A stretch of DNA of 64,000 nucleotides from an uncultured Planctomycetota bacterium. GTDB taxonomy: Bacteria; Planctomycetota; Planctomycetia; Gemmatales; Gemmataceae. Numbering within the stretch: the first letter of the stretch is position 1; each line of letters begins with the position of its first letter. Positions 27,001 through 30,000 of the stretch are shown piece after piece. The stretch spans positions 64,001-128,000 of the forward strand of contig CAWKHF010000003.1 of the NCBI GenBank assembly GCA_963849325.1. The letters run 5' to 3'. A program made the position numbers.

Positions 27001-30000
27001 TGACCGAGGTGGTGGTGCCAACGAGGTCGGCAAGCTCTTTTTGCGTGAGGCCAGCCTCGGCCCGCAGCGTGTGGATGGATTGGGCGACCTCGGCGTTCAT
27101 CGCCTCTGGCGGCGCGGGCGCTGGAAGGCGTTTGTCATCGCCAGCATGGTGATCCCTGACCGACGCCCGTTCCACTTTCCTCGGCCTGCACAGCCCCCAA
27201 GACCAATAGAAGTGGGTAGTCGGGAACGCCCTTTAAACTCGCAGGCTATGACTTTTTCGCAAATTTGCGAAATCAGGTCAAGGCAAGGTGGGAAGAATCG
27301 AGGAAGTTCGGCCGACCCAGGTCCGGTTTTTCTCACGGTAGAGTTTTTGCGGCGCAAAACCGAAGCGCGACGTGGCATGCCAGCGGCTGAGGTGCCTTAA
27401 CCCCACCTCATGCGGATTGGCCTCCGGTAGACCAAGGGCTGACTCCGCGGGTAGGATACTCAGAGAAGGGTCTGAACTGGCTAGTCGGTCCGTGGTCAGA
27501 GAATGGCCTCTCCAGATTGCTGCCGCTTGTACTGTGGTACTGGATTTTGTACTGGATAAACGAAAAAGTACTGCATTTCCCGGCACTTCCTTGCAAGAGG
27601 ATGAGAGATCTTGCAACAGAACGCTTGCCAGGAGGCAATCCAGAAGTACAAGTGGGTTCAGCAGTTACGACGGCAAGTTGGCGTCTCCCAGCCAAGCTCG
27701 ACACGCTGGGTGTCACTCGCCTGCAGGGCCGGCAGCGCCGCGGGGCGGATACAATTCATCGACGTGGGACCGCAGCTCTTCACCGAGTGGTGGGACCAGT
27801 TCAAGCAGTTCCCCCGGCTGACAACGAAGGAACCGGCATAGTGCCTCGATGTACCGGCTGTTTGACACGATCCCAGGTCGCACCGAGGCGAGCGACGAGA
27901 GCACCGAGGTCGAGATGCCCGTTTGCTCGCTCACTTCTTTCCAGGTAATCTTCCGACCCTCGGCCTCTTCAAGGTCTCGAAGCCGCCGGACCAGGTGAAA
28001 GCGTATCACGCAACCTCCTTGCGGATTCCCGGGAAGATCGACCGTTGGACAGGCCAGCCAAGTCGGCATGATAATAATCCTTCCACAGACAATTTCTTGT
28101 GGGTGGAAGAAATTCCTAGTGACGGAAGGACTCCTCTCGTTTATCCTATTCTCCAACCACGCCCGTGGCGAGTCGTGCGGAGGGTATGTACCTGGCGCGC
28201 GGGGTTCTAAATTCGTAGTGCCTGAACCCGGGCTTCTTGTCCCGACTGTTGGCAGGCGTCTGCTGAATCCGGAACAACTGAAGGGTTGCCGCCTTCAGCC
28301 GGCAATTCACCAGGTTCAAGGGTGCCATTGCGCACCGGAACTGGTGAATTTCCATGAAGGCGGCAACCCTTCTTGCTGTCCCCACCGCGGGGCAGCGGCA
28401 CCCTGGCCGACCGCCCAGGGCCGTGACCGTGGACGTGACACTCGGCGACTCTTTGCCGGGGAATTCTATCCATCCACTCGCCTGCCTGACAGCGGCCCAG
28501 CGCACCGAGGAACGACGGCACGCGCTCGCCCAGGTTAAGGAGCAGTCCGACCTCCGGCAGCGGCTGCAGGCGCTGTCCGCCGAGAGCGCACCGCTCGCGG
28601 CGGCAATGGCGAGAGCCCGTGAGTTCGTCGCCGGCTGGGCCACGGTCGCCCAGATCCTGGACGCCGCCGAGGAGGACGAGCTGCGGCTCCTGTTGCAGCA
28701 CTTCGTCGAGGTGATCGAGCTGGCCCACGAGTCGGCCGACGGCAAGACGGGCACCTACGCGCTGCGGCTTTTCCCGGAGGTGCGGCCGCTCGACCCGCCG
28801 CACGGGCCGGAAAACGAAGGCGGGCCACCCGACCCGACATCCGGGGGGCGGCCCGCGTTAACCGAGGCCGTCGAAACTTGTGGCGACCAGCAAAAAGCTC
28901 CCCGAGTAGGACTCGAACCTACAACAAACCGGTTACGTTTGCCCCCATGTTTCCATGGGGAACGGACTATCTCATCACCCCAGAGGGGTGCAGGGCGCTC
29001 GAGGCTGGGTTATTGGATGGGCTCCTCACCAGCTAGTCTCTGCACCTTCCCGGCTACTGATTGCCCTTCGCCGGGCTTGGCTCAGGATTGCCGCCACCCA
29101 AAGTGCTGCGGGTTCCCTGCTAGGCCAACCGTTTCAATTCCTTGAGTAAACAAGGAATCTGCAGGTCTTCCTCCGTGGCGTGGTAAAACGTCACCGTACT
29201 GGCTTTGGCCAGGTATTGCTGAATCAGCAATAACTCCGACCTTTTCACCACAGAGTAGGGGAGGATGAGATCGCATAGAGCCAATCATGCCTGTTTTCGA
29301 TAGACGCGGATGCGATAAGAAGGCCGCGTCGATCTCGGCCTTGGAAGCGGGCCTTTCGTGGAGTAGGCGATGACGTTGTCCACGAGGATGGCAACGACCT
29401 TCCGGTGCATGGCTTCGCTAATACTCTCAATCGTCACACGGCAACTCATGCCGCGTTCCGAATCTCGATGCACCGTCACGCAGCCTTCGCCATCAATAAT
29501 TCCCGCCAGCCAGGCAATGTCGGCAATACCCATCTCCCCTGCCTAGTTTAATTCACCCTGTTTTCCACTGGCCATTGCTGACCAGCGCTGCGATTCTTCA
29601 CAGCCGGTTGCTCTACCATTGAGCTATCGGGGAAAATCAGACGAGGGTGTTGGCCGGGCAGATCCCATCCACACGCTCGCCCGCATATGTTCTAAAACAA
29701 CTCCCGCAACTTCGCAAGTCTATTTTCGTGAATTCACCGAGGCGAAGCAGCCAGAGGGAGGTGCGGGAGGATCATGACGGTTCGGGTGACGGTCATCGGG
29801 GCGGGACTGGCGGGACTGGCGGCGGCGGCGGCGCTGGCGGAACGCGGCTTCGAGGTGACAATGCTCGAAGCGCGAAACCGAGCCGGCGGCCGGGCCAGCT
29901 CCTTCGCCGACGCCGCCAGCGGACAACTGATCGATACCTGCCAGCACGTCAGCATGGGCTGTTGCACCAACTTCGCCCATTTCTGCCGCACGGTCGGCAT

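Follow-up and report, generated by a model that had tools for sequence, protein, structure and literature searches.

A group I intron with a LAGLIDADG reading frame in the tRNA-Asn(GUU) gene of a Gemmataceae bacterium

In the genome of an uncultured member of the Gemmataceae, a tRNA-Asn(GUU) gene appeared to be interrupted in its anticodon. It was asked whether the insertion is a group I intron, whether the split gene is the one typical of the family or a relic, and whether the endonuclease encoded inside the intron can still be made. The window, i.e. the whole stretch of 64,000 nucleotides that was analyzed, was searched for tRNA genes with ARAGORN. No tRNA was found in the 64-kb window when introns were disallowed. 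With introns allowed, the program joined two exons into a tRNA-Asn(gtt) of 73 nt with a 664-nt intron and the junction gctgt/.../taacc, and the normal tRNA-Asn of the preliminary description was thereby reproduced. The insertion point is located in the anticodon, between U35 and U36. The parts of the gene and its second copy are as follows.

28897-29633 (C3:92897-93633), minus strand: split tRNA-Asn(GUU) gene (ARAGORN, introns allowed)
29600-29633, minus strand: 5' exon of tRNA-Asn, 34 nt, tRNA positions 1-35, ending in GGCUGU with U35 at -1 (ARAGORN with introns)
28936-29599, minus strand: group I intron, 664 nt, first nucleotide G, omega-G at 28936 (Rfam, ARAGORN, covariation, unconstrained fold)
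28897-28935, minus strand: 3' exon of tRNA-Asn, 39 nt, from UAACCGG to the discriminator G plus C (ARAGORN with introns)
C12:838633-838706: second tRNA-Asn(GUU), intron-less, within a 12-tRNA array

The 3' exon lacks an encoded CCA and agrees at every position (100% identity) with the corresponding half of tRNA-Asn from many genomes of the family; the 5' exon is the same or almost the same in seven family loci. Taken as a whole, the exons of the split gene are 97-100% identical to uninterrupted tRNA-Asn in many genomes of the family. In a congener (G136), they are contiguous at the syntenic, intron-less locus. The 14 contigs of the studied genome yielded 92 tRNA calls; only two of these were tRNA-Asn genes, and the second one belongs to the array, which bears out the earlier statement that the split gene is the only non-array tRNA-Asn. 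An extra copy is possible because the assembly is 84.69% complete. The array tRNA-Asn has an intact cloverleaf, its acceptor and anticodon stems diverge from the family-typical tRNA, and its acceptor stem contains two G.U pairs. Exon identity, the syntenic intron-less locus of the congener and the divergence of the array copy all agree with the previous designation of the host as a housekeeping gene. Thus, a mobile group I intron very probably interrupts the tRNA-Asn(GUU) gene that is typical of the family. The split gene need not be functional, since a second, intron-less tRNA-Asn is available in the array.

The nature of the insertion was evident from the Rfam model Intron_gpI (RF00028), which matched the minus strand at 28943-29162 (C3:92943-93162) with 56.6 bits (gathering score 50; E=1e-11), exactly as had been reported before. 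Related introns scored 62.4-87.3 bits on the same model. The following elements were assigned.

29587-29604, minus strand: P1, exon GCUGU and intron nt 1-2 paired with intron nt 7-13 (internal guide GCAGC)
29568-29585, minus strand: P2 hairpin, intron nt 15-32 (fold and compensatory substitutions among relatives)
29550-29560, minus strand: 5' strand of P3, CAGGG (nt 40-44), and J3/4, UGAAUU (nt 45-50), upstream of the ORF domain
28936-29119, minus strand: ribozyme core with P4, P5, P6/P6a, P7, an extra hairpin, P3', P8 and P9 (Rfam alignment, segment alignment, pair counts)
29034-29038 with 28965-28969, minus strand: P7
29004-29033, minus strand: extra hairpin between P7 and P3'
28991-28995, minus strand: P3'
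28943-28960, minus strand: P9, with a GAAA loop

Both splice sites carry the expected signals. At the 5' splice site, U35 forms a U.G wobble pair in P1 with the G of intron nt 9. P1 was also present in the minimum-free-energy fold, in which pre-tRNA nt 30-36 are paired with nt 41-47, and the guide pairs at 5-6 of 6 positions in 19/19 relatives from which it could be extracted. The intron ends in omega-G (...AAACG/UAACC), and a terminal G was found in 7/7 family loci and in 14/14 delimited loci outside the family. A P10-like GUU/AAC pairing upstream of the guide is seen in several relatives and is absent from the studied intron.

Covariation was analyzed in nine homologous introns. In an alignment built from separate segments rather than full-length introns, pairing is seen in 97.3% of the 367 cells, and both sides have changed in 21 of 41 pairs. 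None of 500 shuffles matched the observed pairing, and slid controls were paired to at most 49%. The pairs of P7 are invariant among the aligned introns and hence uninformative on covariation, and the extra hairpin between P7 and P3' covaries. To our knowledge, a hairpin at this place is not expected in subgroup IC3. The 5' strand of P3 has its partner, CCCUG at 28991-28995, on the far side of the ORF domain; all five pairs are formed in 19/19 relatives, by nine different pair combinations. Unconstrained folding of the 737-nt precursor recovered the tRNA arms, P1 with its U.G pair, P2, the long-range P3, the closing helix of the ORF domain and P4-P9. In the alignment with its relatives, the studied intron retains every invariant core column. 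The Rfam E-value and the covariation exclude a chance match. The claim of a group I intron is upheld by the agreement between the Rfam score, the U-1/omega-G signals, the covarying helices P1-P9 and the unconstrained fold.

The core is interrupted by a domain that carries the reading frame.

29120-29549, minus strand: ORF domain between J3/4 and P4, intron nt 51-480 (comparison with ORF-less relatives)
29541-29546 (CUAGGC) with 29120-29125 (GCCUAG), minus strand: closing helix of the ORF domain
29288-29533, minus strand: LAGLIDADG ORF, codons 1-82, with ATG at 29531-29533 and the motif LAGIIDGEG
29285-29287, minus strand: in-frame TGA, codon 83, with TTG directly after it
29120-29284, minus strand: LAGLIDADG ORF, codons 84-137 and TAG, with 54 in-frame codons past the TGA

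In ORF-less relatives, GAAUU runs straight into CAGGGAA. A closing helix of 5-7 bp was found in 15/15 ORF-bearing relatives from which it could be extracted, with inserts of 423-433 nt, and the TAG stop of the ORF sits in the 3' strand of this helix, immediately before P4. The ORF of 82 aa with LAGIIDGEG, followed by an in-frame TGA and a further 54 aa, was recovered as described previously (29285-29533, continuing to 29120). So was its score of 21.1 bits on Pfam LAGLIDADG_3 (PF14528); the 137-aa version with X at the stop scored 20.5 bits, and both values lie below the cut-off of 22.5 bits. No NCBIfam family matched the studied ORF. The full-length homologues, which are 54-70% identical, scored 24.4-30.8 bits and thus passed the Pfam cut-off. 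Twenty-one of 42 candidate proteins matched with E<=0.01, the best of them having 137 aa with 53-70% identity and 97-100% query coverage. Intact related proteins comprise 136-138 aa, one of 137 aa being encoded on a metagenome contig, and the studied ORF aligns with them end to end. Residues D14, G15, E16 and G17 are invariant in 19/19 aligned sequences.

An AlphaFold2 model (pLDDT 94.5) showed the order H-E-E-H-E-E followed by three helices. Its best Foldseek matches were I-CvuI, I-CreI and I-MsoI with a probability of 1.00, and the TM score was 0.60-0.65 for I-CvuI and I-CreI. The family profile matched I-CvuI with E=3.8e-6. The assignment as a LAGLIDADG-type ORF is therefore well founded, as intact homologues pass the Pfam cut-off and fold like I-CreI and I-CvuI. 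These data support a 137-codon, single-motif LAGLIDADG gene with a predicted I-CreI-like fold that is split by one TGA. No second copy of the ORF was detected by tblastn in the whole studied genome.

The intron might also be a dead relic. The ORF domain adjoins the catalytic core and might slow folding; if this 430-nt domain or the weak P10 had abolished splicing, the split gene would be a pseudogene and the array tRNA-Asn would supply the cell. Such a supply would be feasible, as the cloverleaf of the second tRNA-Asn(GUU) is intact, but with its two acceptor-stem G.U pairs this copy is unlike the family-typical tRNA, whereas the exons of the split gene match the family consensus exactly. The only intron-less copy of Leu-UAA, the other intron-split tRNA of the genome, likewise lies in a tRNA array. 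The endonuclease gene is already broken, which speaks for a relic, yet every helix and all invariant core positions are kept in the studied intron. Moreover, the ORF-domain architecture is maintained in 15 relatives from two phyla, 10 of which have intact ORFs, and the position of the domain is thus no argument against a maintained intron. We thus consider it quite improbable that the locus is a dead relic, and a family-typical tRNA-Asn gene whose intron probably still splices is the preferred reading.

Whether the endonuclease is still made depends on how the TGA is interpreted. It might be an assembly or sequencing error, it might be read through, or translation might restart at the adjacent in-frame TTG so that the pieces of 82 and 54 aa reassemble; in each of these cases, the intron could still be homing. 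The 54 codons past the TGA are free of further stops or frameshifts, and identity to the closest intact homologue amounts to 78% after the TGA as compared with 66% before it. Against an active product, broken ORFs were also observed in two relatives (L087 and L091). Among the 15 delimited ORF-bearing introns, 10 ORFs are intact, three are broken (the studied one and these two) and two were left without a call. ORF decay is thus common in this intron family. In the model, the break falls after the fourth strand, and the three C-terminal helices would be lost; according to the title of a PDB entry, the C-terminal loop of I-CreI is essential for binding and cleavage. Incorporation of selenocysteine was considered because a tRNA-SeC(tca) is encoded in the genome. 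This idea was dropped, as relatives carry A, V or I at the TGA column and never C, U or W, and no SECIS-type RNA scored above the Rfam cut-offs in the 64-kb window. We regard continued production of the enzyme as unlikely; a gene broken by the TGA, probably very recently, is favored.

A different function for the protein was also weighed. LAGLIDADG maturases are known from organelle introns, and the ORF domain adjoins the core, the 3' end of the ORF itself being part of the closing helix. A protein that mainly assists intron folding rather than cutting DNA would suit this arrangement. However, E16, the acidic residue through which the motif binds metal, is among the residues invariant in 19/19 sequences, the core is intact here while the ORF is broken, and the same core is retained by relatives without an ORF (235-286 nt), which means that the ribozyme can dispense with the protein. 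A maturase is accordingly a very remote alternative to a homing endonuclease.

The lineage has also accommodated other ORFs. Two sister introns contain an ORF in the P1 loop that is HNH-like rather than LAGLIDADG. A protein language-model atlas placed one of them (L035) in HNH clusters with a score of 0.96, Pfam HNH reached only 8.4 bits (E=3.2), and searches of NCBIfam and of PDB by sequence yielded zero families and nothing relevant, respectively. A firm HNH assignment was abandoned in view of the low Pfam score and the empty searches, and the term HNH-like is used instead. One intron lineage hence occurs at one site in four versions: without an ORF, with a LAGLIDADG ORF, with an HNH-like ORF and with a broken ORF.

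The distribution of the intron was patchy. Its core was found in 7/252 family genomes including the studied one, which represent seven genera, and in 0/10 congeners. The rarity stated earlier (6/201 and 0/8) was confirmed, the exact counts were not, and the recount gave six other genera instead of five. All seven family loci, rather than the six previously listed, are split at GGCTGT/...G/TAACCGG, and the site as well as the intron lengths of 235-664 nt remained as described. The same intron, ORF and junction were detected in two Acidobacteriota genomes and 12 metagenome contigs; the junction GGCTGT/...G/TAACCG is shared by 7/7 family loci, the two Acidobacteriota genomes and 12/15 metagenome loci. 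The intron family is thus common to soil bacteria of two phyla and patchily spread among them. A phylum-wide search of 401 sampled genomes (including the studied one), conducted by DNA similarity, which diverged cores would escape, gave one other match, a partial one of 78 nt to a different tRNA intron.

Several observations bear on mobility. In a comparison with another genus, identity amounts to 93% for the core and to only 72-73% for the neighboring protein gene, although the high value could partly stem from structural constraint instead of recent transfer. A metagenome DNA contig links position 28935 to 29600 and leaves out exactly the 664 nt of the intron. The intron-less site contains a dyad centered on U35 with 7/10 symmetric pairs, and the corresponding site of the array copy deviates from the housekeeping one at 9 of 24 positions.

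The most likely pathway is as follows. Transcription of the split gene would yield the 737-nt precursor, in which the intron would fold into the usual group I core, with P1 presenting the U35.G wobble pair and P3-P9 forming the guanosine-binding active site. Free guanosine would attack after U35, and the freed 3' OH of U35 would then attack after the terminal G, so that GU and U are rejoined and a normal tRNA-Asn results. Conservation suggests that this splicing takes place in the cell. Contigs that match the locus are confined to the exons and the core and leave the ORF part uncovered, and the RNA-library contigs of relatives do not demonstrate transcription. In no sequencing run searched for the locus did the fraction of recovered words sampled from 28600-29900 exceed 0.10. 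In intact relatives, the LAGLIDADG enzyme is, as judged from the model, most likely a homodimeric homing endonuclease. Its probable target, deduced from sequence, is the DNA of the anticodon stem, a near-palindrome, in tRNA-Asn genes without the intron; these would be cut there, and the intron would be copied into them. Homing-endonuclease genes pass through a cycle of gain, decay and loss, and the TGA at codon 83 would represent an expected stage of decay. The tRNA-Asn intron does not differ in principle from this cycle, as several ORF states occur at one site and are sporadic among genera; it provides a clean two-phylum example of it from bacterial tRNA. The review PMC3073962 notes that similar introns have been independently invaded by different ORFs.

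Williams (2020; bioRxiv 10.1101/2020.01.27.920355) listed 21 types of bacterial tRNA introns, 17 of them new, and assigned the four classical ones (Leu.3Ug, fMet.2Ug, Ile2.5Ug and Arg.5Ug) to subgroup IC3. Like these introns of tRNA-Leu(UAA), tRNA-fMet(CAU), tRNA-Ile2(CAU) and tRNA-Arg(CCU), the one studied here is a small ribozyme in a bacterial anticodon loop, with a U at -1 that is wobble-paired in P1, a 3'-terminal G and a patchy distribution. It differs from all four in its host, tRNA-Asn(GUU), and its site, nt 35/36 (position 4 in the numbering of Williams), and furthermore by the extra covarying hairpin between P7 and P3' and by its occurrence in Planctomycetota-type and Acidobacteriota genomes. 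A bacterial tRNA-Asn group I intron was named in no paper found by our literature search, and the 17 new types of Williams may include Asn; priority is uncertain.

The tRNA-fMet intron of Synechocystis (PMC3073962, Table 1) resembles the present case as a bacterial tRNA intron encoding an endonuclease aimed at the anticodon region. There, the enzyme is of the PD-(D/E)XK type and its ORF lies in P1, overlapping P1/P2, whereas here a LAGLIDADG ORF is housed between J3/4 and P4, in a separate domain closed by a helix; the P1 loop is used for the HNH-like ORFs of the two sister introns. The homodimeric enzymes I-CreI, I-CvuI and I-MsoI, which stem from group I introns, share with the encoded protein a single motif, the alpha-beta-beta-alpha-beta-beta fold with C-terminal helices and a near-palindromic target, presumed in our case. 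Their chains of ~150-170 aa are longer than the 137 aa found here and identity is 12-19%; the presumed target is a gene segment for the tRNA anticodon stem-loop, and a stop codon interrupts the gene studied here.

The intron is therefore an element of an already-understood kind. New are its distribution in 7/252 genomes, the members from Acidobacteriota and metagenomes, the unusual placement of the ORF domain between J3/4 and P4, and the HNH-like ORFs of the sister introns. A further-reaching proposal is tempting and in our opinion rather doubtful: a hitherto undescribed class of tRNA-Asn(GUU) introns in bacteria, located at nt 35/36 and present in two soil phyla, with an ORF domain of ~427 nt between J3/4 and P4 that, in the boldest form, gives rise to an active two-piece enzyme by restart at the TTG. 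If true, it would show that the J3/4-P4 junction of the core accepts large cargo, and a domain beside the core would be of interest for ribozyme engineering if splicing were confirmed. The series of versions without an ORF, with an intact or a freshly broken LAGLIDADG ORF and, elsewhere, with an HNH-like ORF is suited to the study of how ORFs enter, decay and leave at one site, and the presence of the family in two distant soil phyla bears on how such elements move. Because standard tRNA finders overlook split genes of this kind, genomes carrying them are annotated as lacking a normal tRNA-Asn.

The studied genome and its family also carry classical Leu(UAA) and CAU-type tRNA introns. ARAGORN with introns had suggested a dozen host tRNAs, among them Ser, Thr, Gln, Arg and Leu-CAA. 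This idea collapsed upon re-mapping by the U-1/omega-G signals, in which 'Thr' proved to be Asn, 'Ser' corresponded to the classical Leu(UAA) site and 13 others were tRNA(CAU). Both intron-split tRNAs of the genome have intron-less copies in arrays, which poses a question on the role of tRNA arrays.

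Run with its default settings, ARAGORN reported no tRNA gene in the whole 64-kb window. When introns were allowed, it found a 73-nt tRNA-Asn(GUU) gene at 28897-29633 on the minus strand, interrupted by 664 nt between anticodon nucleotides U35 and U36 (...GGCUGU/intron/UAACCGG...). The sole Rfam family above its cut-off within the window was Intron_gpI, which matched 28943-29162 on the minus strand with 56.6 bits (E = 1e-11; gathering score, 50). The figures that the preliminary description had given for this locus (split tRNA, intron length, Rfam score, ORF, and LAGLIDADG_3 score) were all reproduced on re-run. 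The intron is real, lies in a family-typical tRNA-Asn gene, and shows some unusual anatomy.

ARAGORN was the sole caller on which the tRNA-Asn copy count rests, in an assembly of 84.69% completeness; among its 92 tRNA calls on 14 contigs of the genome under study (G000), just one tRNA-Asn was present besides the split gene, at C12:838633-838706. This copy sits within a tight array of 12 tRNAs (C12:838476-839555). It differs from the split gene in its anticodon stem and in its acceptor stem, which contains two G.U pairs, and 9 of 24 positions differ around the insertion site. The 39-nt 3' exon of the split gene was found at 97-100% identity in many genomes of the family, and in a congener, G136, both exons are contiguous and adjoin the same downstream gene (flank identity, 72% over 1473 nt). 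Judged by their sequence, the exons are those of a family-typical tRNA-Asn. For this reason, and because of the intron-less syntenic copy in G136, the earlier label of a housekeeping tRNA-Asn is fair. Three dense tRNA arrays were seen in G000: C1:515629-516193 (7 genes), C4:433741-435175 (13 genes), and the C12 array. Both intron-split tRNAs of the genome have their sole intron-less copies in arrays, that of Asn-GUU on C12 and that of Leu-UAA on C4. Outside the arrays, ARAGORN also called a tRNA-SeC(tca), a "tRNA-Stop"(tta), and two tRNAs with odd anticodons.

Structurally, the tRNA-Asn intron of G000 is an intact group I intron. Nine introns at the tRNA-Asn site, seven from the family and two from Acidobacteriota, were aligned from P4 to the 3' splice site, and a hand-drawn structure comprising P4, P5, P5a, P6, P6a, P7, an extra hairpin between P7 and P3', P8, and P9 was counted. 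Standard pairs were present in 97.3% of 367 cells, both-sided changes occurred at 21 of 41 pairs, and none of 500 shuffles equalled any observed pairing measure. Controls with partners slid by 1-3 columns gave 28-49% pairing, a comparison in which the hand-drawn structure is somewhat favoured, as it was derived from the same nine sequences. P7 was invariant in the nine introns and therefore uninformative on covariation. P3 is formed by CAGGG (intron nt 40-44) and CCCUG (nt 605-609). In a check of 24 introns, three were not delimitable and two, whose 5' strand was missed by the pattern, paired by eye; all five P3 pairs were formed in the 19 scored, in nine different combinations. Exon GCUGU pairs with the guide GCAGC as P1, with U35 opposite G, and the last nucleotide of the intron is G. 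Folding the 737-nt precursor in ViennaRNA without constraints recovered the acceptor, D, and T arms, P1, P2, the 560-nt-range P3, and P4-P9. Every column invariant among homologues is also kept in the G000 intron. We infer that the intron splices. The real P2 is at 29568-29585; a perfect 9-bp hairpin at the 3' end of the ORF (29112-29145, minus strand) was taken for P2 by the Rfam model.

The ORF is placed between J3/4 and P4. In ORF-less relatives (235-286 nt), P3-UGAAUU is joined directly to CAGGGAA of P4, and in G000 430 nt (intron nt 51-480) separate GAAUU from CAGGGAA. This insert begins with AAA; the rest of it is a domain that the helix CUAGGC/GCCUAG closes, and the TAG stop of the ORF falls within the 3' strand of this helix. 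The same placement was seen in all 15 ORF-bearing relatives with an extractable pattern, of 18 examined; their inserts measure 423-433 nt and are closed by 5-7 consecutive pairs (variants CUAGGC, CUGGG, CUAGGCC, and CUAGGCA). We know of no other intron ORF at the J3/4-P4 boundary, although no survey was made. The relevant passages of a review give P1, P6a, and P8 as insertion sites and describe intron ORFs as lying mostly in loops, with possible creeping into the core (PMC3073962). The ORF domain has a short repeat, GAAUU.AAAC...CUAG.CAGGG, at each end.

The ORF (29285-29533, minus strand) encodes 82 amino acids including LAGIIDGEG, followed by TGA; the frame then continues for 54 codons and ends with TAG at 29120-29122. 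Pfam LAGLIDADG_3 scored 21.1 bits, below its cut-off of 22.5; homologues exceeded it with 29.5, 30.8, and 24.4 bits. When the 137 codons were read through with X, 21 of 42 candidate proteins matched at E<=0.01, 17 of them being 137-138 amino acids long with 53-70% identity over 97-100% of the query. The family profile matched I-CvuI (E = 3.8e-6). An AlphaFold2 model built from a 19-row alignment (mean pLDDT 94.5) showed a helix, two strands, a helix, two strands, and three helices, and its best Foldseek matches were the homodimeric I-CvuI, I-CreI, and I-MsoI (probability 1.00; TM 0.60-0.65). D14, G15, E16, and G17 are invariant. At the intron-less site, the best dyad is centred on U35, half a base off the insertion point, with 7 of 10 symmetric pairs, and would suit a homodimeric enzyme. 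The ORF is most likely a freshly broken gene for an I-CreI-like homing endonuclease. Where G000 has the stop, 14 of 18 aligned relatives have V, three have A, and one has I. In the model, the stop at codon 83 lies just past the fourth strand, and the three C-terminal helices would be lost. A sequencing error, read-through, or a restart at the adjacent TTG, any of which would mean that the TGA is no true inactivation, appears improbable to us. The 54 codons after the stop contain no further defect; their identity to the closest homologue is 78%, versus 66% for the first 82 codons. We read the TGA as a very recent inactivation.

Members of the intron family occur in two phyla of soil bacteria. 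When one genome per species was scanned with a peptide pattern, 25 loci came back. The closest two are from an Acidobacteriota MAG and from a Pyrinomonadaceae MAG; in each, a tRNA-Asn(GUU) gene contains a group I intron (675 and 683 nt; Rfam, 70.3 and 62.4 bits) that shares junction, ORF, and ORF placement with G000. In metagenomes, the best 80 of 208 relatives were retained and the 15 closest (L077-L091) examined; 12 are tRNA-Asn introns at the same junction, and in the remaining three the sequence ends early or the pattern missed them. Among 15 delimited ORF-bearing introns (G000, 2 MAGs, 12 metagenome loci), the ORF is intact in 10, broken in 3 (G000, L087, and L091), and has a possible TTG start in 2. 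Metagenome locus L077 (GC 0.60) has an exon 1 identical to that of G000 and an intact ORF of 137 amino acids. In one DNA contig from a metagenome, position 28935 abuts 29600, with exactly 664 nt left out, and several contigs of relatives, from DNA and RNA libraries, show P4 running straight into the J3/4-P3 sequence, as in the ORF-less form; these contigs come from other organisms and have no bearing on splicing in G000. More distant LAGLIDADG relatives (28-33% identity) lie within 625-658-nt insertions in another tRNA, in Acidobacteriota genomes (L056-L065) and metagenomes (L116, L123, L124, and L128), none of which gave an Rfam Intron_gpI match at E<=0.001. ARAGORN named the host as Arg, SeC, Stop, or Ser; for 7 of the 10 genome loci, placing the intron so that U precedes the 5' splice site and G ends the intron (U-1/omega-G rule) gives tRNA-Arg(UCU) split after U34 (...GCCUU/...G/CUAAGC).

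A DNA search of all 252 family genomes with core plus 3' exon found the core in seven, representing seven genera: G000 and six others at 93, 88, 88, 80, 80, and 74% identity. It was absent from all 10 congeners, at least seven of which showed the exon alone. The neighbouring protein gene is 73% identical in G136, 72% in G083, 70% in G032, and 65% in G063; in G083 it lies on another contig. RNA constraint accounts for part of the contrast between core and protein-gene identity. A core identity of 93% with a different genus, together with absence from congeners, agrees with either lateral spread or repeated loss.

In a maximum-likelihood tree, 21 cores fell into two clades (100/100 each), an Acidobacteriota-type clade of 13 cores, all with a LAGLIDADG ORF, and a Gemmataceae-type clade of 8 cores, of which two carry LAGLIDADG (G000 and L077), four have no ORF, and two hold a different ORF in the P1 loop:

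L035:1121-1685 (genome G032), sister tRNA-Asn intron with a P1-loop ORF of about 136 codons, complete
L033 (genome G083), sister tRNA-Asn intron with a P1-loop ORF, frame-broken, shortened, and degraded

The G000 core grouped with these two at 94/91, a support that is not strong. The LAGLIDADG label needs three changes on the tree, just one being forced by well-supported branches, and protein identities parallel the two core clades. The simplest reading would be an old intron-plus-LAGLIDADG unit with later losses, plus a second, independent ORF invasion. Given its CxxC...HH...CxxCH pattern, atlas matches to HNH clusters (0.96), and a Pfam HNH score of just 8.4 bits, we call the P1-loop ORF HNH-like. 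In G032, it has no ATG, GTG, or TTG near the frame start and is in phase with a GTG made of the last two exon bases and the first intron base.

As a kind, bacterial tRNA group I introns are well known; their types were raised from 4 to 21, and introns above about 400 bp may contain genes (Williams 2020, bioRxiv 10.1101/2020.01.27.920355). Within the literature searched, no bacterial group I intron in tRNA-Asn was named, nor any tRNA group I intron from Planctomycetes or Gemmata; "Asn" and "Planctomyc" are absent from the running text of bioRxiv 10.1101/2020.01.27.920355, whose type names stand in a table and a figure. tRNAscan-SE 2.0 is described, in a passage of PMC8450103, as not designed for detecting such introns.

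G000 contains a second group I intron at C2:959820-959980 (L002:1382-1685, minus strand), with 35.1 bits on Rfam, below the cut-off of 50. ARAGORN's host call, tRNA-Ser(gga), was rejected: the U-1/omega-G rule gives CGGACUU/218 nt/AAAAUCCG, the classical tRNA-Leu(UAA) site. Six more family loci (L014, L015, L019, L020, L023, and L024) have the same solution. Rfam Intron_gpI was found at E<=0.001 in 44 of 151 sampled family genomes, and above the cut-off in 14. After re-mapping, the 31 fetched family loci (L001-L031) included 6 in tRNA-Asn, 7 in tRNA-Leu(UAA), and 13 in tRNA(CAU); for five (L004, L012, L013, L021, and L029), ARAGORN found no tRNA. One tRNA(CAU) locus is split after U36 and 12 after U33, nine of these at CAGGCU/CAUAACC-type sites (one being CAUGACC) and three at GGGACU/CAUAAUC.

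A DNA search of 401 sampled genomes of the phylum, including G000, matched only one further genome, over 78 nt of a different tRNA intron. A tRNA gene of another planctomycete family (L158, genome G287) carries 355 nt inserted into its anticodon loop. The core of this insertion is related to that of the Asn intron and includes a P7-P3' hairpin of the same kind (UGAGG...CCGAUAA); the host is tRNA-Gln by ARAGORN and tRNA-Arg(CCU) by the U-1/omega-G solution.
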